Positions 2,189 through 11,027 of a stretch of 34,800 nt of DNA are shown here, one piece after another. The translations under genes and the position numbers were made by a program. Source of the stretch: Syntrophorhabdus sp. PtaB.Bin184 (GTDB lineage: Bacteria; Desulfobacterota; Syntrophorhabdia; Syntrophorhabdales; Syntrophorhabdaceae); the NCBI GenBank assembly GCA_002067555.1, contig MVQQ01000011.1, positions 1 through 34,800 on the forward strand. The letters are read 5' to 3'. Positions within the stretch are counted from its first letter, which is position 1, and every line of letters starts with the position of its first letter. Under the pieces are notes generated by a model, which saw only the letters and a program-made list of their open reading frames with translations, did no database searches and was not told the DNA's origin.

Positions 2189-3484
2189 ATGAAGGATATA
2201 TTAGATAGAGCGGCCGCGTATTTCGATCATGCTGAGGTTTTTTATCTCAATGAGAAGGGAAGGAAGATCGAGGCCAGGGATGGGGAGATCTGTGCGGTCG
2301 AGTTCAAGGAAGAGGAAGGGTACGCGTTGCGTGTCATAAAGGGTGCGAGGCCGGCATTCGCCTATACCTATGACCGCGTCGACCCGGCCGGGAAACTTAT
2401 CGCGAATGTGGAAGCCCTGCTGCCTGTCATGGAGAAGGATGAGGACAGCGTTTTCGCTCCCGCCTGCGAGGGGTATCCTGATTCCCGGTTGTACGATGCC
2501 GCCGGGATGGCCGTCGGCGATGACGAGAAAAGGTCGATGCTCATCGCCATGGAGAAGACGATCAGGGAACATGACGGCAGGATAAGGGCTGTCAGGAACT
2601 GCGAGTTCCACGAAGTGGAGCTCGAGGCCGCGCTGGGGAATTCGAATGGTGTTCTCGTGGAGGGCAGGAAGACCCTTTTTGTCTGGTCTGCGATGGCTGT
2701 GGCCGGGCAGGGTGATGACGAGGTGTCCTGGTATGACTGGCGCTGGTCGGACGACCTCACAGGGATCGACTCGACGCGGATGGGGCTCGATATCGCGGAG
2801 AAGGTCATCTCCATGCTGTCGGCGGAGCAGATACCAACGGGCACATACGAAGGGATACTGACACCACGGGCGGCGTCGGATCTGCTCGGGATCCTGTCGG
2901 AGTCCTTTCTCGCGGAGAACCTGTACAAGGACAAGACGCAGCTGAAGGGCAGGGAAGGAACACGGTGTTTCGCGAAGGGACTCAGGATGGTGGATTCAGG
3001 AATGGCGGGGCCCGATGCATTTGCCTTCGACGGGGAAGGCGTGCCTTCCTTCGAGAACGTGGTTGTGGATGACGGGGTATTTCAGACCTTTCTGTACGAT
3101 ACATATTTTGCCCGAAAGCTAGGCAGGGCTTCGACGGGCAGCAGCGTGAGGAGCGGCCTCAAGAGCCCGCCAAGGTGCGGGGCCCGGGGGATGTACGTGG
3201 GGAAAGGTGTGAGAGATATACTGGCGCCGATGACCAATGGCATCGTGATAGAGGACCTCATGGGAACCCACACCGCCAACACCGTCACGGGGGATTTCTC
3301 TGTGGGCTGCCTGGGTTACATCTGCAAAAATGGTGAAAGAAAACCCTTCCAGGGCGTAATGTTCTCGGGAAATGTCTTCGATATCTTCAAAAGTGTCGGG
3401 GAAACCGGTACCGACCTCACCTTCTACGGCCCCGTCGGCTCCCCGTCGATCTACGTCGAGGGGCTGAAAATAAGCGGAACGTGA
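2189..3484 (+). CDS. TldD/PmbA family protein (PmbA-like, putative metalloprotease/modulator)
   Basis: ATG 2189 is preceded by GAGGGGG (2176-2182). The C-terminal region IEDLMGTHTANTVTGDFSVGCLGYICKNGERKPFQGVMFSGNVFDIFKSV is typical of the family. The upstream part of ORF 1973..3484 is translated repeat DNA and was excluded. Confidence 0.8.
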   Translation: MKDILDRAAAYFDHAEVFYLNEKGRKIEARDGEICAVEFKEEEGYALRVIKGARPAFAYTYDRVDPAGKLIANVEALLPVMEKDEDSVFAPACEGYPDSRLYDAAGMAVGDDEKRSMLIAMEKTIREHDGRIRAVRNCEFHEVELEAALGNSNGVLVEGRKTLFVWSAMAVAGQGDDEVSWYDWRWSDDLTGIDSTRMGLDIAEKVISMLSAEQIPTGTYEGILTPRAASDLLGILSESFLAENLYKDKTQLKGREGTRCFAKGLRMVDSGMAGPDAFAFDGEGVPSFENVVVDDGVFQTFLYDTYFARKLGRASTGSSVRSGLKSPPRCGARGMYVGKGVRDILAPMTNGIVIEDLMGTHTANTVTGDFSVGCLGYICKNGERKPFQGVMFSGNVFDIFKSVGETGTDLTFYGPVGSPSIYVEGLKISGT

Positions 3485-3490
3485 GAAGAC

Positions 3491-3606
3491 GGTTTCAAGT
3501 TTCAGGTTTCAGGTTTCAGGTCGGAGACCAGATCGAAACCCTTACGCGAATGACAAAAGGTTGGAACGATTTTTTGCCTGAAACCTGAAACGTGGCACCT
3601 GAAACC
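3491..3606. repeat. Opposed heptamer arrays: (G/A)GTTTCA x4 at 3491-3518, and TGAAAC(C) x3 on the other arm (3579-3592 and 3600-3606)
   Basis: Read directly. gtttcaggtttcagg (left arm) is the perfect reverse complement of cctgaaacctgaaac (3577-3591). About 55 nt lie between the arms, including a T6 run at 3570-3575. Confidence 0.8.
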
Positions 3607-3631
3607 GCATTCTCTTCTCTTCACAAAACCC

Positions 3632-3660
3632 TTGACATGCGTGCGCGCAATTGAGATGAT
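3632..3660 (+). promoter_or_regulatory. Candidate sigma70-type promoter for the glycan operon (TTGACA-17 nt-GATGAT)
   Basis: Perfect -35 TTGACA at 3632-3637, a 17-nt spacer, then a 4/6 match to TATAAT at 3655-3660. It lies ~100 nt upstream of the first gene of the co-directional array. Sequence match only. Confidence 0.35.
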
Positions 3661-3759
3661 GTGTCTGTTCAGGGGTTGAACAAATCAATGATCATCGCGA
3701 ATTTGCAGGGAGAGTTGCAACCTCAGTGGCGGTAGCCTGCCCGAAAATCAGAAATCCAC

Positions 3760-4653
3760 ATGAATGAAGCCCAGTTCAGGACCCTCCGGGAGCTTTCCTC
3801 GGAAGGTGAGATATCCCAGAGAGACCTCTCGAAGAGGATAGGGCTCAGCCTGGGGAGCGTCAACTTTATCCTCAAGGAACTGATCAAACAGGGTTACGTC
3901 AAGGCTCAGCGCTTCAAGAACTCCAACAACAAGGCGGCATATATCTACGTTCTCACGCCGAAGGGCATCAACGAGCGCGTCCGCCAGACCCAGTATTTCC
4001 TCCGTCTCAAGATGGAGGAATACGAGAAGCTCCAGAGGGAGATAGATGACCTCAGGCAGGAGAACGCGCACCTTGATGAGAACGCGGCAGGGACAGACGG
4101 TAAGAGACCGGCCGTTTTCATCGACCGCGATGGCACCATCATGGTCGATGTTGGATATCCGAAGTATGCCCGGCAGGTGAGCCTGATACCGGGGGCCGTC
4201 AGGGCATTGAGAGAATTGAGGAGACAGGGCTTTCTCATCATAATCATAAGCAACCAGTCGGGGATCGGAAGGGGATACATGACCCGCAGGCAGGCCGATA
4301 ACGTCCACAAGAGGGTGATCTCGCTTCTTGCCAATTCCGGTGTGGAGATCGATGACGCCTGTTATTGCCCTCACGCCCCGGACGAAGGGTGCAAGTGCCG
4401 CAAGCCATCCCCGGAAATGCTCTTCGAAGCGGCGAGAAAGTTCAACATCGATTTGTCCCGATCCTTCATGATCGGAGACAGGGATGTCGACATCGAAACC
4501 GGAAGGAACGCGGGTTGCCGGACACTGTGCCTGAGGTCGGTGGAGAACCGAACGGCAGAGTCCATCCTCGCCGACTACGAGAGCGGAGACTGGGAGGGAT
4601 TAATGCGGTACATACTCGACAGCGCGTTTCCGGAGGAGACGAATGCTTTTTGA
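3760..4653 (+). CDS. gmhB: Fusion protein: N-terminal EPS-associated MarR-family winged-helix regulator plus C-terminal D-glycero-D-manno-heptose 1,7-bisphosphate phosphatase (GmhB, HAD superfamily)
   Basis: aa 1-100 (ISQRDLSKRIGLSLGSVNFILKELIKQGYVKAQRFKNSNNKAAYIYVLTPKGI, then a coiled LKMEEYEKLQREIDDLRQE) match the MarR_EPS type of regulator. From aa ~118 come the HAD motif I FIDRDGTI (4123-4137), SNQSGIGRG, the GmhB Zn-loop CYCPHAPDEGCKCRKP and MIGDRDVDIETGRNAG. Confidence 0.85.
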   Translation: MNEAQFRTLRELSSEGEISQRDLSKRIGLSLGSVNFILKELIKQGYVKAQRFKNSNNKAAYIYVLTPKGINERVRQTQYFLRLKMEEYEKLQREIDDLRQENAHLDENAAGTDGKRPAVFIDRDGTIMVDVGYPKYARQVSLIPGAVRALRELRRQGFLIIIISNQSGIGRGYMTRRQADNVHKRVISLLANSGVEIDDACYCPHAPDEGCKCRKPSPEMLFEAARKFNIDLSRSFMIGDRDVDIETGRNAGCRTLCLRSVENRTAESILADYESGDWEGLMRYILDSAFPEETNAF

Positions 4654-5623
4654 CAGGGACAGACTGACTCTCAGGCCTCTGCGGGAAAGGATCCATGATC
4701 TCGATGCGAGTGTTGTGCTTCCCCTCGGCACGGCAGGTACGTGGAGTCATCCCGGGATCCGGGAAGCGGCCGGCTACATGGTGAGGGCAAAGAAGGCCCG
4801 TGGCAACATCGTCATGATGGTCGGTGGCCACGTCATCCGTTCCGGTGTCCAGAGGTACATCATCGACCTCATGGAGCGGGGGTATATCACGTGTTTTTCA
4901 ACGAACGGTTCAGGGATGATCCATGATTACGAATTCGCCCTCATCGGCGCCACCACGGAGAGCGTCGCGCGGTACATCAAGGAGGGACAGTTCGGTCTCT
5001 GGAAGGAGACGGGCGGGATCAACGACATCGTCAACGAGTCTCACAGAAAGGGCACGGGCGGTATGGGGGCGGCTGTCGGAGAAGCGATCAACGAGGGTGA
5101 TTTCCCCTACAAGGATATCAGTGTCTTTGCGGCTTGCCATCGCCTGGGCATTCCGGCCACGGTCCATATAGGGATCGGGTATGACATAATCCACGAGCAT
5201 CCCAACTTCGACGGTGCCGCCTCGGGCGCGGCCTCGTACGCGGATTTCCTGAAGTATGCTGAGATCATCAGGAACATAGAAGGGGGTGTTGTGATGAACT
5301 TCGGCAGCGCCGTCATGGCGCCCGAGGTTTTTCTCAAGGCCCTCAGCATGGCCCGGAACGTGGCGAGGGCCGACGGACAATCCATCACGGACCTTACCAC
5401 CCTTGTGTGTGATATCCATGAACTGCCGGACAGGATAGAGGGAGAGCCGCCGAAACAGGACACCAGGTATTATTTCCGTCCCTGGAAGACAATGCTTGTC
5501 AGGACCGTGGCGGACGGGGGCAGGAGCTACTACGTCGCCGGCCGTCATTCGGATACGATACCGGCGCTATGGTCATCGATCAACGATATTGAGCGACAAT
5601 CGAACACTCACGCAAAGCCTTGA
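4643..5623 (+). CDS. Conserved protein of unknown function (weak, unverified resemblance to a deoxyhypusine-synthase-like Rossmann fold)
   Basis: 326-aa ORF overlapping the upstream gene by 11 nt. It has protein-like composition and the segment NIVMMVGGHVIRSGVQRYIIDLMERGYITCFSTNGSGMIHDYE. I recognised no diagnostic catalytic motif. Confidence 0.6.
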   Translation: MLFDRDRLTLRPLRERIHDLDASVVLPLGTAGTWSHPGIREAAGYMVRAKKARGNIVMMVGGHVIRSGVQRYIIDLMERGYITCFSTNGSGMIHDYEFALIGATTESVARYIKEGQFGLWKETGGINDIVNESHRKGTGGMGAAVGEAINEGDFPYKDISVFAACHRLGIPATVHIGIGYDIIHEHPNFDGAASGAASYADFLKYAEIIRNIEGGVVMNFGSAVMAPEVFLKALSMARNVARADGQSITDLTTLVCDIHELPDRIEGEPPKQDTRYYFRPWKTMLVRTVADGGRSYYVAGRHSDTIPALWSSINDIERQSNTHAKP

Positions 5624-5633
5624 GGAGCCTGCG

Positions 5634-6104
5634 ATGAAGATTTATACAGTTGACAAACTGGCCAGAAAGATTGAGAATAGCAAAATTAGGGGTAAGAAGG
5701 TTGTGCTTTGCCATGGATGTTTTGACCTCATGCATCCAGGTCACATAAAGTACTTTCAGGCCGCAAAGAAGATGGGCGACATTCTGGTTGTGACCGTTAC
5801 CCCTGACAGATATGTAGACAAGGGGCCGGGAAGACCTGTGTTCAACGAGCAACTGCGCGCCGAGTCCATAGCAGCCCTGCAGTGCGTCAATTACGTGGCC
5901 ATCAACGAATGGCCCACGGCAGAGGAAACGCTCAGATCGTTGAGGCCTGACATATACGTCAAGGGTCAGGAATTCGAAAAGCTCGAAGATAAGACAGGCA
6001 AGATACAGAGGGAGAGTGAGGTTGTAAGGGAGATAGGAGCGGAGCTGAGATTCACCCATGAGATAGTGTTCTCGTCGACGCATTTGCTCAAGAACTATTT
6101 CTGA
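5634..6104 (+). CDS. Cytidylyltransferase-fold nucleotidyltransferase, RfaE domain II-like (putative heptose-1-phosphate adenylyltransferase)
   Basis: ATG 5634 follows GAGGAG (5622-5627). Intact HxGH motif CFDLMHPGHIKYF (HPGH at 5733-5744). KGPGRPV matches the KGxxRP segment of the HldE C-terminal domain. The ORF-track start at 5496 overlaps the upstream gene and was not used. Confidence 0.8.
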   Translation: MKIYTVDKLARKIENSKIRGKKVVLCHGCFDLMHPGHIKYFQAAKKMGDILVVTVTPDRYVDKGPGRPVFNEQLRAESIAALQCVNYVAINEWPTAEETLRSLRPDIYVKGQEFEKLEDKTGKIQRESEVVREIGAELRFTHEIVFSSTHLLKNYF

Positions 6105-6160
6105 AGAGGAGAACCGCCATCAAACGGAAAATTCTATATATCAACGATCTTGTCAAAAAA

Positions 6161-7645
6161 GTGAGGCAGCTCAGGGAATCGGGAAAGGTGATCGTCCAGA
6201 GCCACGGGGTCTTTGACCTCGTCCATCCGGGGATAATCCAGCACCTCGAAGAGGCAAGGGCCCGGGGAGACGTGCTTGTCGTCACCGTCATACGTGACCA
6301 GGACGTGCGCCGGGGCCCGGGAAGGCCGATCTTCCCCGAGATGATGAGAGCCCAGAACGTCGCGTCCCTGCAGCAGGTCGATTACGTGGCCATAGTGGAG
6401 GAGGCGACCCCCTTTGAATGCGTCAGGGTGATAAAACCCGACATCTTCGCCAAGGGGCAGGCCTACAAGGAACGGGACCGGAAGATACACGAAAGGATCT
6501 ACGAAGAGGGCAAGGAGTTCTATTTCGGAAAGAGCGTGATCCTGGAGACGCAGGGTTTCTCTTTCAGTTCCTCCAATCTCATCAACAACTTCCTCGACAT
6601 ATACCCCGACGAGACAAAAACGTTCCTGCAGGATTTTTCGAAGCACTACAGTTTTGAAAAGATCGTGAGCAAACTGGACACCCTCAAGGGGATGAAGGTC
6701 CTTCTTATCGGTGACGGGATAATCGATGAGTATCATTACTGTACGGCCCTCGGCAGGTCGTCGAAGACGCCCATCGTTGTAAACAAGTACCTTACGCACG
6801 AGGACTTCGCGGGGGCGGTGTTTATCATCGCCAATCATATCGCGGGGATCTGCGAGAAGGTTCATCTGGTCACGCTTCTCGGCAGGAAGGATTCGCGGGA
6901 GGAGTTCGTCCGCGCTAGCCTAAGGCCGAACGTGGAGCCTCATTTCTTCTACCGCGAGGACGGGCCGACGATCGTAAAAAGAAGATATATCGACCAGTAT
7001 CGCAACCAGAAGCTCTTCGAGATCAACTACCTCAACGAGAATTACATCAATGGCAACTGCGAGAGCTCGATAATAGACTACCTCAAGGAGGTGGTCAAAG
7101 ACTATGACCTGGTCCTTGTTTCCGATTTCGGGCACGGATTCATAACGAAAGAGATAATCAAGGCCATCTCCAGGCACGCGAAGGTGTTCGCCGTGAACAC
7201 CCAGACGAACGCGGCGAACACGGGCTACAATATGATCACCAAGTACAGGAAGCCCAATTTCGTCTGTCTCGACGAGACGGAGGCGCGTCTCGCCACTCAG
7301 GACAAATTCTCGGACATACAGGATATCGCGAAAAGGATCGTGGCGAAGATAAAGAGCGATTTCCTGATCGTCACTCTCGGGAAGAAAGGGTCGATAGGTG
7401 TCACCAAGAAGGGTGAGGCGAACTACACGCCGATATTCTCGACGAAGGTCGTCGACACCGTGGGTGCCGGGGACGCCTTCTTTGCGTTCACAGCCCCGTG
7501 CTTCGCGCAGGGTATGCCCCTTGACTTCGTCTCCTTTATCGGCAACGCCGTCGGCGCTCTTGCCGTTCAGATCATGGGGAACAAGAAGCCCGTCGAGAAG
7601 CACGAACTTCTCGAATTCATCCACACGATCCTCAACCAGCGGTGA
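6161..7645 (+). CDS. Two-domain protein: N-terminal RfaE-II-like nucleotidyltransferase-like domain (degenerate HxGH) plus C-terminal PfkB/ribokinase-family sugar kinase. This is the reverse of the E. coli HldE domain order.
   Basis: N-domain VFDLVHPGIIQHL (HPGII at 6224-6238) and RGPGRPIF are paralogous to the preceding gene. The kinase domain starts at ~aa 178 (KVLLIGDGIIDEY) and ends with the PfkB signature DTVGAGDAFFA. GTG 6161 is the first canonical start, but the frame is open from 6062, so the start is uncertain. Confidence 0.8.
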   Translation: MRQLRESGKVIVQSHGVFDLVHPGIIQHLEEARARGDVLVVTVIRDQDVRRGPGRPIFPEMMRAQNVASLQQVDYVAIVEEATPFECVRVIKPDIFAKGQAYKERDRKIHERIYEEGKEFYFGKSVILETQGFSFSSSNLINNFLDIYPDETKTFLQDFSKHYSFEKIVSKLDTLKGMKVLLIGDGIIDEYHYCTALGRSSKTPIVVNKYLTHEDFAGAVFIIANHIAGICEKVHLVTLLGRKDSREEFVRASLRPNVEPHFFYREDGPTIVKRRYIDQYRNQKLFEINYLNENYINGNCESSIIDYLKEVVKDYDLVLVSDFGHGFITKEIIKAISRHAKVFAVNTQTNAANTGYNMITKYRKPNFVCLDETEARLATQDKFSDIQDIAKRIVAKIKSDFLIVTLGKKGSIGVTKKGEANYTPIFSTKVVDTVGAGDAFFAFTAPCFAQGMPLDFVSFIGNAVGALAVQIMGNKKPVEKHELLEFIHTILNQR

Positions 7646-7648
7646 GCC

Positions 7649-8233
7649 ATGAAAGAATTCGTCAAGAAGTATCCAGGTCTTTTTGTCGACATGGTCGGGT
7701 CCATAGGCTACACCGATGCCTTGAACCAGGCAAAGCCCGTCGACGACGGCATTGAACGGGTGTGTCTGCTCATTGAAGGGCAATCAGGAAAGAAGGGCAA
7801 GGTCATCTTCATCGGCAACGGGGGAAGCGCGGCCATCTCCAGCCACATGTCCATAGATTTCTGGAAGAACGGCAACATCCCGTCCATGTGCTTCAACGAC
7901 GGCGCCCTGCTCACCTGTCTCGGCAACGACTACGGGTATGAGAAGGTCTTTGAGAAGCCCATAGAGATGTTCATGAACAGCGAGGATGTCCTTATCGCCA
8001 TCAGCAGTTCCGGAAGGTCGCAGAATATCCTGAACGGTGTGAGGGCGGCGAGGGATATCGGCTGTGAGGCCGTCACGCTGTCCGGTTTCGGCAAGGACAA
8101 TCCTCTGCGACGGATGGGCTCGCACAATTTCTACGTTCCCGCGGACAAGTATGGGTTCGTGGAGATCGTTCACCAGTACATATGCCACTGGATACTCGAT
8201 TCGATCCTGTACAACAGGTCGATATACAAATAA
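7649..8233 (+). CDS. gmhA: Phosphoheptose (sedoheptulose-7-phosphate) isomerase, SIS domain
   Basis: VIFIGNGGSAAISSHMSIDFWKN and LIAISSSGRSQNILNGVRAARDIGCEAVTLSG are typical GmhA/SIS motifs. The size (194 aa) fits. It starts 4 nt after the upstream stop. Confidence 0.85.
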   Translation: MKEFVKKYPGLFVDMVGSIGYTDALNQAKPVDDGIERVCLLIEGQSGKKGKVIFIGNGGSAAISSHMSIDFWKNGNIPSMCFNDGALLTCLGNDYGYEKVFEKPIEMFMNSEDVLIAISSSGRSQNILNGVRAARDIGCEAVTLSGFGKDNPLRRMGSHNFYVPADKYGFVEIVHQYICHWILDSILYNRSIYK

Positions 8234-8253
8234 ACAGGGGGTAACACCAAACC

Positions 8254-9249
8254 ATGACATCAAAAAAGGTCTTTGTAACAGGCGGAGCGGGTTACGTGGG
8301 TGCCGTTCTCGTGCCCAAACTCTTGAAGAAAGGCTACGAGGTCAAGGTCCTTGACCTCTTTCTCTATGGAGAGGACGTGCTCGACAGCGTCAAGGACGAT
8401 CCGAAGCTCAAGAAGGTGAAGGGCGACATCAGGGACAGAAAGCTTCTGGAAAAGGAGATCCCCGGCTATGATACGGTGATACACCTTGCCTGCATCTCCA
8501 ACGACCCGAGCTACGAGCTGGACCCTGACCTCGGCAAGTCGATAAATTACGACGCCTTCATCCACCTTGTCGATGTGGCCAAGAAGGCAGGAGTGAAGAA
8601 GTTCGTCTACGCCTCGAGTTCCAGCGTGTATGGCGTCAAGGATGTTCCGGACGTCACGGAGGACCTGCCCCTTGAACCTCTCACGGACTACTCGAAATAC
8701 AAGGCCCTCTGCGAGGACATACTCTTGAAGGAGGCGACGGATGATTTCATCGTATCCATCATACGTCCTTCGACGGTCTGCGGTTATTCCCCCAGGCTGC
8801 GCCTCGACCTCACGGTGAACATCCTTACGAACCACGCGGTCAACAAGGGCGAGATCACCGTCTTCGGCGGCGAGCAGATGAGACCCAACCTGCACATCGA
8901 GGACATGACGGACTTCTACGTGTTCCTTCTCGAGGTTCCCGACGAAAAGATACACAAGACGATCTACAATGTTGGTTACGAGAACTACAAGGTGAAAGAG
9001 ATCGCCGAGATGGTCAAGGGCGTCATCGACCCGAAGCTCCCCATCATAACGACCCCTTCCGATGACAACCGGTCCTACCAGGTGTCGTCGAAGAAGGTCA
9101 AGGAGGCCCTCGGGTACGTCCCGAAGCGCACCATCGAGGACGCCATACTGGACCTCAAAAAGGCCTTCGATGATGGAAAGATACCTGATTCCATGAACGA
9201 TATCAGGTATTACAACATCAAGACCATGCAGGCCGTCAATCTCAAATAG
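8254..9249 (+). CDS. NAD-dependent epimerase/dehydratase (extended SDR), substrate unknown
   Basis: Rossmann motif VFVTGGAGYVGAVLV, ASSSSVYG, and the catalytic YSKYK (YxxxK). Confidence 0.8.
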   Translation: MTSKKVFVTGGAGYVGAVLVPKLLKKGYEVKVLDLFLYGEDVLDSVKDDPKLKKVKGDIRDRKLLEKEIPGYDTVIHLACISNDPSYELDPDLGKSINYDAFIHLVDVAKKAGVKKFVYASSSSVYGVKDVPDVTEDLPLEPLTDYSKYKALCEDILLKEATDDFIVSIIRPSTVCGYSPRLRLDLTVNILTNHAVNKGEITVFGGEQMRPNLHIEDMTDFYVFLLEVPDEKIHKTIYNVGYENYKVKEIAEMVKGVIDPKLPIITTPSDDNRSYQVSSKKVKEALGYVPKRTIEDAILDLKKAFDDGKIPDSMNDIRYYNIKTMQAVNLK

Positions 9250-9255
9250 GAGTCC

Positions 9256-10092
9256 ATGGTGCAGAACACACAAACCCCGGATTACCAGGAACTTGAATCC
9301 CTTGCAAAGAAGATCAGAGCACGGCTGGTGGTGATGTCACACAGAACGGGGGCAGCGCACCTTGGTGGCGCGCTGTCCTGTGTGGATATCATAGTGGCAT
9401 GTTACTGGGCCCTTATGAACGTCGATCCCCGGAAGGCCTTCGACCCTGGCAGGGACAGGCTGATATTCAGCAAAGGACACGCCATCGCTACGCTGTACGT
9501 TGCCCTCGCCATGAAAGGCTTCTACCCCGAGGAACTGCTTGACAGTTACGCGCAGTGCGGCAGCAAGCTGGCCGAGCACCCGGCCCCCTATTGTGTACCC
9601 GGCCTGGAGGTGGCGACGGGCTCCCTCGGGCATGGACTGCCCGTGGGGCTTGGAATGGCCATGGCGGGAGCGATCAACCATGTGCCGTACAATGTTTTCG
9701 TTGTCATGAGCGATGGAGAGTGCAACGAGGGTTCTGTTTGGGAGGCGGCCATGCTGGCGCCGGCACGGAGCATCGAGAACCTCGTCGTCTTTGTTGATTA
9801 CAACAGATGGCAGGCCACGGGAAGAAGCGAGGAGATCATGGCATTGCCGTCTCTGAGGCAAAAATGGGAGGCCTTCGGGTGGAACGCGTATGACGTGGAC
9901 GGCCATGATATCAGAGCCCTCGTCGACGCGGTGCGGCAGGCGCCCCGGGGCGACGGGAAGCCGGTGGCGGTGGTTGCCCACACCGTCAAGGGGAAGGGTG
10001 TCTCCTTCATGGAGGACGACAACAACTGGCACTACAGGATCCCCAATGAAGAGGAAGTGCAAAAAGCCTTAAAGGAGCTCGGTCAATTATGA
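9256..10092 (+). CDS. Transketolase, N-terminal (ThDP-binding) subunit of a split transketolase
   Basis: GGALSCVDIIVACY, FSKGHA, GSLGHGLPVGLGMA, SDGECNEGSVWEA and KGKGVSFMED are the usual transketolase PP-domain motifs. 278 aa. RBS TAGGAG upstream. Confidence 0.85.
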   Translation: MVQNTQTPDYQELESLAKKIRARLVVMSHRTGAAHLGGALSCVDIIVACYWALMNVDPRKAFDPGRDRLIFSKGHAIATLYVALAMKGFYPEELLDSYAQCGSKLAEHPAPYCVPGLEVATGSLGHGLPVGLGMAMAGAINHVPYNVFVVMSDGECNEGSVWEAAMLAPARSIENLVVFVDYNRWQATGRSEEIMALPSLRQKWEAFGWNAYDVDGHDIRALVDAVRQAPRGDGKPVAVVAHTVKGKGVSFMEDDNNWHYRIPNEEEVQKALKELGQL

Positions 10093-11027
10093 GAAACGCC
10101 TTTGCTTCAGAGATGACGAACATGGCCAGCGAGGACAAAAGGATCGTGCTGCTTTCAGGCGATATAGGAAACCGGCTCTTTGACGATTACAAGGGCCATG
10201 CCCCGGACCGTTTTGTCAACTGCGGCATAGCGGAGGCCAACATGATAGGCGTTGCCTCCGGGATGGCGATGTGCGGCTTGAGGCCCATCGCCTACACCAT
10301 CACCCCCTTCATCACGGCGAGGTGCTACGAGCAGATCAAGGTCGATGTGTGCTACCACAATCTGCCCGTGATCATCGTTGGCGTGGGAGGCGGCCTGTCC
10401 TACGCGGAACTCCTCTCCACCCATCACTCCTGCGACGACATCGCGCTTCTGCGCATACTGCCCAACATGACGGTCATCTGCCCGAGTGACAGCCACGAGG
10501 TCAGGGCCGCCCTGAGGGCGGCGGTCGCCCACGGAGGGCCTGTCTACATCCGTCTCGGCAAGAAGAACGAGCCCCTCATCCATGACAGTCAACCGGAGTT
10601 CACGATAGGCAAGGGCATCGTGATACGCGAGGGCACCGATGTCTGCATGCTCAGCACCGGCAACCTTATGCCCCTCGCGCTTGAGACCGCCGCGATGTTC
10701 GGAGACGACGGCATCTCCGCCCGGGTCGTGAGCTTTCACACGGTGAAGCCCCTCGATGAGGACCTCCTGACAGAGGCCTTTAACAACTTTGACGTCGTTA
10801 TCACCCTGGAGGAACACGGTCTGCTGGGTGGGTTCGGCAGCAGTGTCTCGGAGTGGCTGGTGAAGAGGCCGGCGGCGAAGGCGGACCTCCTGCAGATCGG
10901 AGTGGACGACGTCTTCTGCTACGAGGCCGGCAAGCAGGATGACGCCCGAAGGACGTTCAACATCACGAAGGAATCGATCGTGGAAAGGACCCGCGACCTC
11001 TACCGCAACAGAAAGCAGGGAACCTGA
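10089..11027 (+). CDS. Transketolase, C-terminal (pyrimidine-binding plus C-terminal domain) subunit
   Basis: The start overlaps the upstream stop (ATGA at 10089-10092). Motifs FVNCGIAEANMIGVASGMA and CDDIALLRILPNMTVICPSD. 312 aa. Confidence 0.85.
   Translation: MRNAFASEMTNMASEDKRIVLLSGDIGNRLFDDYKGHAPDRFVNCGIAEANMIGVASGMAMCGLRPIAYTITPFITARCYEQIKVDVCYHNLPVIIVGVGGGLSYAELLSTHHSCDDIALLRILPNMTVICPSDSHEVRAALRAAVAHGGPVYIRLGKKNEPLIHDSQPEFTIGKGIVIREGTDVCMLSTGNLMPLALETAAMFGDDGISARVVSFHTVKPLDEDLLTEAFNNFDVVITLEEHGLLGGFGSSVSEWLVKRPAAKADLLQIGVDDVFCYEAGKQDDARRTFNITKESIVERTRDLYRNRKQGT

Follow-up and report, generated by a model that had tools for sequence, protein, structure and literature searches.

Does a transcriptional regulator that has become joined to an enzyme of the operon it heads sense the state of that pathway, or are the two functions simply carried on one polypeptide? 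The question is raised by a 34,800-nt stretch of DNA from Syntrophorhabdus sp. PtaB.Bin184 (positions 1 to 34,800 of the forward strand of contig MVQQ01000011.1, assembly GCA_002067555.1), hereafter the window. Its open reading frame (ORF) at 3760..4653 on the + strand encodes, in an uninterrupted frame of 297 amino acids (aa), a MarR_EPS regulator module followed by a GmhB-like phosphatase domain, and is the first gene of a ~31-kb co-directional sugar-polymer array. The fusion is a previously undescribed architecture built of two known families, and it is real and conserved; the literature yielded no account of a MarR-GmhB fusion, nor of the function of the MarR_EPS family (TIGR04176). The reading that we favor, with a probability of roughly 0.6, is a lineage-specific fusion of two neighboring operon genes that would yield an additive bifunctional protein, an autoregulator plus the operon's GmhB-like phosphatase, with largely independent parts.

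A regulator and a phosphatase in one reading frame

The fusion gene divides into three segments, the linker being delimited by the predicted local distance difference test score (pLDDT), by the ratio of nonsynonymous to synonymous substitutions (dN/dS), and by comparison with an unfused relative, locus L021:

3760..4074, + strand: MarR_EPS module, aa 1-105, with a winged helix-turn-helix (wHTH) at aa 1-66 and a long helix at aa 67-105 (TIGR04176)
4075..4110, + strand: linker D106-P117 (DENAAGTDGKRP), 12 residues
4111..4653, + strand: GmhB-like HAD-IIIA domain, aa 118-297 plus stop codon, placed by family models, Foldseek, and alignment

Family membership was judged by the curated NCBIfam cutoffs and, for Pfam, by gathering scores. 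The N-terminal part matches the MarR_EPS model TIGR04176 at 123.6 bits against a cutoff of 88, with aa 2-101 covering model positions 3-102 of 105, which bears out an earlier note on this DNA that had called the domain an EPS-type MarR regulator. The Pfam HTH_24, MarR, and HAD models all exceed their gathering scores on the fusion protein; the match to MarR (PF01047, 37.4 bits vs. 24.6) is limited to aa 2-51, the HTH part. In canonical MarR proteins the N- and C-terminal helices interdigitate to form both the dimer and the ligand pocket. Unlike that six-helix dimer (PF01047), the window module lacks the N-terminal dimerization helix: in the AlphaFold2 model of the fusion (mean pLDDT 85.7) it consists of three helices (residues 3-12, 20-27, and 31-43), a wing (strands 47-53 and 59-65), and one long helix (67-109). 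This is the MarR_EPS layout of a short wHTH and a single long C-terminal helix, and a module of that kind standing alone has no recognizable ligand-binding domain. The coiled-coil a/d positions of the helix at aa 67-105 are occupied by Y88, L91, I95, L98, N102, and L105, and this pattern stops exactly at the end point of stand-alone MarR_EPS proteins. A sequence search of the PDB returned no MarR protein or other relative of the N-terminal module at E <= 0.001. Past the helix, pLDDT falls below 50 at aa 110-113, where the linker is predicted to be disordered. The earlier note had placed the linker at aa 101-117; a short linker does exist, but E101-L105 belong to the coiled-coil helix, and the linker proper is D106-P117.

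The C-terminal domain exceeds the cutoffs of the histidinol-phosphatase-type model TIGR01656 (149.2 vs. 84) and of the HAD-IIIA model TIGR01662 (123 vs. 44.6), with the domain-model matches spanning aa 116-262. Among specific families the GmhB models score best, yet each remains under its own cutoff (NF006506, 151.9 < 178; TIGR00213, 127.6 < 149.6; NF050049, 105.8 < 250). The motifs lie at aa 122-126 (DRDGT), 164-168 (SNQSG), 201-205 (CYCPH), 211-216 (CKCRKP), and 239-244 (GDRDVD). They supply the catalytic residues D122 and D124 (motif I), T126, S164 (motif II), K215 (motif III), and D240 and D244 (motif IV), as well as the zinc loop CxH...CxC (C203/H205/C211/C213). Catalytic and zinc residues align with those of Escherichia coli GmhB (PDB 3l8e, E = 2e-29 in the PDB sequence search), and in an alignment of 37 fused and unfused homologues the zinc ligands are invariant and the residues of motifs I-IV invariant or nearly so. 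The top Foldseek matches of the domain are 3l8e, 2gmw, and 3l8h, from E. coli and Bordetella GmhB (target TM-score 0.82-0.86, E ~1e-14). E. coli GmhB (3l8e/2gmw) is thus the best match in sequence and structure, sharing the HAD-IIIA fold, the DxDxT, S/T, K, and GDxxxD motifs, and the zinc loop; the window domain is nevertheless only ~33% identical to it and adds an N-terminal DNA-binding module. By these comparisons the domain is a GmhB-like HAD-IIIA phosphatase short of strict GmhB equivalog status. The motifs and catalytic aspartates listed in the earlier note are therefore in place, and its description of a "complete GmhB" stands for fold, motifs, and domain models but not for the cutoffs of the GmhB-specific models.

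That two genes were merged artificially, through a missed stop codon or frameshift in sequencing or assembly, was a concern beforehand because the contig derives from a metagenome, but nothing was found in its favor and it is scarcely credible: 20 contigs from at least 10 independent sequencing runs carry the identical 297-aa product, and the frame is open in all eight diverged orthologous coding sequences. Among the 120 best whole-protein matches, nine clusters at 90% identity carry both domains (292-297 aa, 74-93% identical). They are drawn from NCBI, JGI, ENA, and Logan assemblies, and one of the fusion loci is that of "Deltaproteobacteria bacterium UBA1386." Wherever the flanking sequence of a fusion locus is long enough, the gene order is the same: recN, a GNAT acetyltransferase gene, pmbA/tldE, the fusion, a GSU2086-family gene, a nucleotidyltransferase, a nucleotidyltransferase-PfkB kinase, SIS, an SDR epimerase, and a split transketolase. 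On the eight orthologous coding sequences, dN/dS (Nei-Gojobori) is 0.035 for the wHTH, 0.07 for the long helix, 0.37 for the linker, 0.08 for the HAD domain, and 0.26 for the C-terminal tail. Synonymous divergence (dS) among these orthologues is ~1 or saturated (up to >2). Because dN/dS is low at such divergence, both halves are under strong purifying selection, and the linker is relaxed. None of the flaws of which the earlier note had been wary was found, whether a split ORF, an N-terminal domain outside the wHTH models, or lost catalytic aspartates, and the in-frame fusion that it described holds.

Origin of the fusion and its relatives

Related uncultured Deltaproteobacteria have stand-alone MarR_EPS proteins of 105-120 aa that share 74-91% identity with the N-terminal part of the fusion and whose genes head varied sugar operons (loci L002, L003, L005-L008, L020, and others); the window module is 74-83% identical to the proteins of L002, L003, L005, and L021. 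Like the window protein, these TIGR04176 regulators head a polysaccharide operon behind one and the same upstream cassette (as in L002, L003, L005, and others), but they end after the coiled-coil helix, where the window protein continues into an enzyme. In four metagenome loci marR_EPS is followed directly by a separate GmhB-like gene, across a 4-nt GTGA stop/start overlap in L021, a gap of 31 nt in L029, and gaps of 17 nt in L031 and L034. The L021 regulator ends in ...LRRENAEL* and its phosphatase begins VREDKTLSGQP-AIFMDRDGT; the window protein reads ...LRQENAHL(105)-DENAAGTDGKRP-AVFIDRDGT. The junction L105|D106 (nt 4074/4075) coincides with the L021 stop/start overlap, and the 12-residue linker appears to derive from the N-terminal extension of the former enzyme.

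Because the junction falls on the stop/start overlap of an unfused relative, the simplest origin would be that the stop codon between two translationally coupled genes was lost. In the course of events that we propose, a ~105-aa MarR_EPS gene headed the operon and was translationally coupled to a separate ~178-aa GmhB-like gene, as in the relatives; the stop codon at that junction would then have been lost in the window's clade of uncultured Deltaproteobacteria, and the coiled-coil helix would now continue through a flexible 12-residue linker into the phosphatase. Divergence is too high for the exact junction mutation to be reconstructed at the DNA level. A different origin was considered and dropped, namely deletion of the five-gene nonulosonic-acid block (SDR, DegT, PglD-like, NeuC-like, and NeuB) that in L005-L008 lies between marR_EPS and the closest stand-alone HAD gene; such a deletion is unnecessary because adjacent unfused marR_EPS and HAD pairs exist in L021, L029, L031, and L034. 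Between M85 and M128 the frame of the window ORF is free of ATG, GTG, and TTG, and across the orthologues start codons in the linker are sporadic, with no conserved internal start for a separate phosphatase; because of this the phosphatase can presumably be made only as part of the fusion. Besides the fusion domain, no further HAD-IIIA copy occurs in the 34.8-kb window.

At the same chromosomal site after pmbA, one relative (L020, a contig of ERZ764778, positions 644-1378) carries a stand-alone MarR_EPS protein 91% identical to the N-terminal part of the window protein, and a canonical-looking GmhA/SIS gene follows it in place of the fused phosphatase. The cassette thus stays constant while the head of the operon behind it varies.

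When 1.84 billion representatives were searched exhaustively (HMMER) with the MarR_EPS part as the query, 769 matched at E <= 1e-10. Among the best 150 of these, 149 proteins are 68-191 aa long, and the single fused exception (P0167, Logan contigs, 297 aa) joins a MarR_EPS module of 50% identity to a Glucosamine_iso/6-phosphogluconolactonase-like domain. These figures, together with the nine two-domain clusters among the best whole-protein matches, agree with the earlier note that the two domains are normally separate proteins. The join in P0167 lies at the same point as in the window, directly after the coiled-coil helix, and because this independent fusion chose the same point, the MarR_EPS C-terminus appears to tolerate fusion. 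C-terminal fusions of the family thus seem rare, yet to have arisen at least twice. The phosphatase family has its own history of joining: HisB proteins appear among the HMM and PDB results for the HAD domain, and GmhB-like proteins fused to a nucleotidyltransferase (PF01467) appear among the whole-protein matches (P0038, P0060, P0065, and P0104). As in the window, HisB (histidinol-phosphatase-IGPD) and GmhB-nucleotidyltransferase have a member of this family fused to the product of a neighboring pathway gene; they differ in joining two enzymes, whereas the window protein joins a transcription-factor module to an enzyme.

The leader cassette and the operon behind it

Fused and unfused loci are strikingly alike in the ~100 nt ahead of the start codon, which contain three elements:

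3632..3660, + strand: predicted sigma-70 promoter, with -35 TTGACA at 3632-3637, a 17-nt spacer, and TG-extended -10 GATGAT at 3655-3660 (10/12 consensus matches)
3666..3682, no strand assigned: palindrome TGTTCA-GGGGT-TGAACA, candidate MarR_EPS operator, at the predicted transcription start
3728..3739, + strand: 5'-leader ops-like element GGCGGTAGCCTG, 32 nt ahead of the ATG

The palindrome is the sole match in the window, where the chance expectation is 0.08. To place it in the family, 220 nt upstream were scanned in 77 non-redundant marR_EPS loci, each with 150 nt or more of sequence ahead of the gene. GTTCA-N5-TGAAC occurs in all 27 loci whose MarR_EPS is at least 66% identical and in 22 of the other 50, which are more distant; the background is 0.012 per 220 nt. 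The ops-like core GGCGGTAG gives 27/27 and 22/50 as well (49/77; background 0.002 per 220 nt), and several misses among the distant loci have the cassette further upstream than the stretch scanned. Both elements are therefore enriched two to three orders of magnitude over background in the 77 loci, and GTTCA-N5-TGAAC is linked to the marR_EPS gene throughout the family, down to 44% identity. In the 27 related loci CTTGAC is invariant and at a fixed distance from the palindrome, whose arms are likewise invariant and whose 5-nt spacer varies. In relatives the cassette takes the form GGCGGTAG(C)nTG 56-71 nt past the palindrome (L001-L003 and L005-L037, fused or not); the spacing between palindrome and ops-like element stays at 56-71 nt, and the distance of both elements to the ATG ranges from 17 to >200 nt. 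Unchanged in relatives with a separate MarR_EPS of 105-120 aa, the cassette appears to predate the fusion.

The ops-like element GGCGGTAGCCTG has only one exact copy in the window and is identical to E. coli ops12, GGCGGTAGCGTG (PMC5995543), at 11 of 12 positions, among them the TG at 11-12 and the bases reported there as essential for RfaH recruitment. It also conforms to the ops 12-mer GGCGGTAGnnTG on the non-template strand of the leader, and it heads ~31 kb of genes that all run in one direction and lie no more than ~80 nt apart. As in the JUMPstart/ops leaders of Enterobacteria, which are RfaH dependent, an ops-like element thus lies in the untranslated leader of a long glycan operon; here, however, the organisms are uncultured Deltaproteobacteria, a marR_EPS gene lies downstream, and a palindrome stands at a fixed ~60 nt upstream. 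Taken together, the cassette suggests that in uncultured Deltaproteobacteria a MarR_EPS operator is combined with antitermination of the RfaH type. The window ORFs scanned include no paralogue of NusG/RfaH, and Rfam searches of the leader (by E-value) and of the whole window (by gathering score) gave no meaningful family.

By eye, positions 3740-3759 (gaaaatcagaaatccacATG) have no Shine-Dalgarno-like sequence ahead of the ATG of the first gene, which is reminiscent of RfaH-dependent operons with factor-assisted ribosome recruitment. Further upstream, between the pmbA stop codon and the promoter (3483-3614), lies a 38-nt imperfect inverted repeat of GTTTCAG heptamers, whose arms (3483-3520 and 3577-3614) are separated by 56 nt. 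All contigs with the identical protein have it, but the 91%-identical UBA1386 locus and every other relative lack it; it looks like a recent insertion, either an element resembling a miniature inverted-repeat transposable element or a terminator hairpin. Rfam matches of this repeat to miRNA precursors were set aside as spurious, reflecting only its hairpin shape. In one fusion-bearing relative (L009, 2589-3228) a toxin-antitoxin-like pair, NTP_transf_2 and HepT, sits between the GNAT gene and pmbA; the window does not have it.

Behind the fusion lies a heptose-type block:

4643..5623, + strand: GSU2086-family gene (NF052581, 367.6 bits vs. cutoff 250), whose start overlaps the fusion stop by 11 nt
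5634..11027, + strand: rest of the block, comprising a nucleotidyltransferase, a nucleotidyltransferase+PfkB gene (HldE-like), a SIS/GmhA-like gene, an SDR epimerase, and a split transketolase

The GSU2086-family gene, which by its overlap is probably translationally coupled to the fusion, comes after the HAD gene at all loci examined, fused or unfused, and its product has a weak Pfam match to an ArgZ-like/deoxyhypusine-synthase-like Rossmann fold. In Geobacter sulfurreducens the homologous block is annotated hldE/GSU2086/gmhA, with GSU2086 between hldE and gmhA, and GSU2086 shows an electrode-growth defect in transposon sequencing (PMC5585712). The heptose-type block occurs in all fusion loci and in L005-L008. 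As in GmhB systems, the neighbors are GmhA-, HldE-, and epimerase-like; in contrast to the classical pathway, the window adds the GSU2086-family protein, an extra nucleotidyltransferase, and the split transketolase.

Two CTP_transf_like domains are encoded at 5634-7645, one in a stand-alone gene and one N-terminal to the PfkB kinase, the reverse of the domain order of E. coli HldE; the product of the block may be a non-classical nucleotide-heptose. At 9256-11027 the transketolase is split into N- and C-terminal halves encoded by overlapping genes within the sugar operon, and presumably supplies sedoheptulose 7-phosphate. The whole array downstream of the fusion consists of sugar-nucleotide, methyltransferase, and glycosyltransferase genes. 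Its distal two-thirds (11627-34580) stand out for an unusual abundance of methyltransferases, with about ten ORFs for S-adenosylmethionine (SAM) methyltransferases, of which three have both the C-methyltransferase domain Methyltransf_14 and the Zn-binding domain Methyltransf_13, together with a radical SAM enzyme, a GFO/IDH/MocA oxidoreductase, a GT2, and a 930-aa protein with a YfhO-like C-terminus; an 867-aa protein in the same interval gave no family match. Because G+C drops from ~0.57 to ~0.48 past roughly 15 kb of the window, the distal array suggests a mosaic, horizontally exchanged glycan locus.

Functional readings of the fusion

In the additive reading, which we favor, the N-terminal part would dimerize through its long helix and, by binding GTTCA-N5-TGAAC where transcription of the operon begins, would act as an autoregulator. 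The C-terminal part, to judge from motifs, fold, and context, would be the operon's working phosphatase of the heptose-1,7-bisphosphate type. In the dimer, both phosphatase domains would sit at the coiled-coil end that faces away from the DNA-binding wings, and the two parts would act mostly independently, with the fusion mainly setting a 1:1 stoichiometry. Several points weigh against this reading. The GmhB equivalog models stay under cutoff on the fusion protein, and because the SIS, PfkB+CTP_transf, CTP_transf, and SDR genes directly downstream are also all far under equivalog cutoffs, the sugar product may differ from the classical ADP-heptose intermediate. DNA binding, dimerization, and substrate are all predicted from sequence, and the palindrome could be a 5'-terminal RNA hairpin. 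One contig per genome was examined, and a second gmhB or marR_EPS elsewhere in the genome is possible. Finally, persistence of the fusion through saturating synonymous divergence could mean an advantage beyond neutrality, coupling of the two functions included.

Such coupling is what the earlier note had in mind when it suggested that a DNA-binding domain tethered to this enzyme could link transcription to heptose-phosphate levels. The fusion would then be a trigger enzyme: the active phosphatase doubles as the effector sensor, occupancy by heptose 1,7-bisphosphate or its product alters dimer geometry and DNA binding, and transcription tracks pathway flux. We hold this possible, if unlikely. 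An apparently active enzyme of the operon's own pathway does share its polypeptide with a DNA-binding domain, the fused enzyme would supply the ligand pocket that is not visible in the AlphaFold2 model of the MarR_EPS part, and the fusion has been maintained through dS of ~1 or more. Precedents exist in BirA, NadR, PutA, and archaeal RbkR, reviewed as trigger enzymes (PMC5397151), which the window protein resembles at the sequence level in having a DNA-binding domain and a competent pathway enzyme in one chain (PMC5397151). For those proteins, however, effectors have been shown to control DNA binding by way of the enzyme domain, and the joined architecture is of ancient date and widely distributed, whereas the window fusion is young and restricted to one narrow clade, and relatives manage without it. 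The linker through which a signal would pass is predicted to be disordered and is weakly constrained, the same leader cassette with its operator precedes near-identical MarR_EPS proteins (up to 91%, L020) in relatives that have no fused enzyme, and trivial loss of a stop codon accounts for the junction. The fuller version of the idea is a heptose-bisphosphate-responsive autoregulator, the first trigger enzyme based on a HAD phosphatase, in which the domains at the coiled-coil tip would modulate binding to GTTCA-N5-TGAAC and tune the 31-kb ops-type glycan operon to flux through the first committed steps; this we consider rather doubtful. The earlier note also allowed that the HAD domain had become a sensor, and a catalytically dead, ligand-sensing domain would fit GmhB equivalog scores under their cutoffs. 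Yet the residues of motifs I-IV and the zinc ligands are preserved in fused and unfused homologues alike, dN/dS of the domain is 0.08, its closest structural match is E. coli GmhB, and the operon has no other HAD-IIIA gene for the reaction and no internal start from which a separate enzyme could be made, all of which makes a dead sensor very unlikely.

The remaining alternative concerns the palindrome, which might act not as an operator but as an mRNA-stabilizing 5'-terminal stem-loop, with the MarR_EPS module acting elsewhere, for example at other glycan loci, and without autoregulation. The palindrome begins at about +1 of the predicted promoter and would thus be transcribed, and its spacing is fixed to the ops-like element rather than to the gene. 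Its half-sites, however, are 5 bp long with centers 10 bp apart, which suits a dimeric winged-helix protein; the flanks are inconsistently complementary (T..A, A..G, C..G, C..A) and show no compensatory changes; the motif is tied to the marR_EPS gene across the family; and no Rfam family matches it. A stem-loop role is on balance improbable, and additive function of a regulator and a phosphatase remains the reading that we prefer. A new regulatory logic is so far without support, and on the comparative evidence the origin of the fusion appears clear and mundane.

The locus offers a clean, dated case of the birth of a regulator-enzyme chimera, which apparently arose when the stop codon between two translationally coupled genes heading an operon was lost, and the presence of fused and unfused states in close relatives allows them to be compared directly. 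If the enzyme half does modulate DNA binding, the trigger-enzyme concept would extend to surface-glycan biosynthesis and to the HAD superfamily, and the otherwise ligand-less MarR_EPS family would gain a sensing mechanism. The leader cassette is at least as worthy of follow-up as the fusion, since it is family-wide: its arrangement of promoter, palindrome, ops-like element, and marR_EPS before variable glycan operons provides a testable operator for an uncharacterized regulator family and hints at RfaH-like antitermination outside the Enterobacteria.

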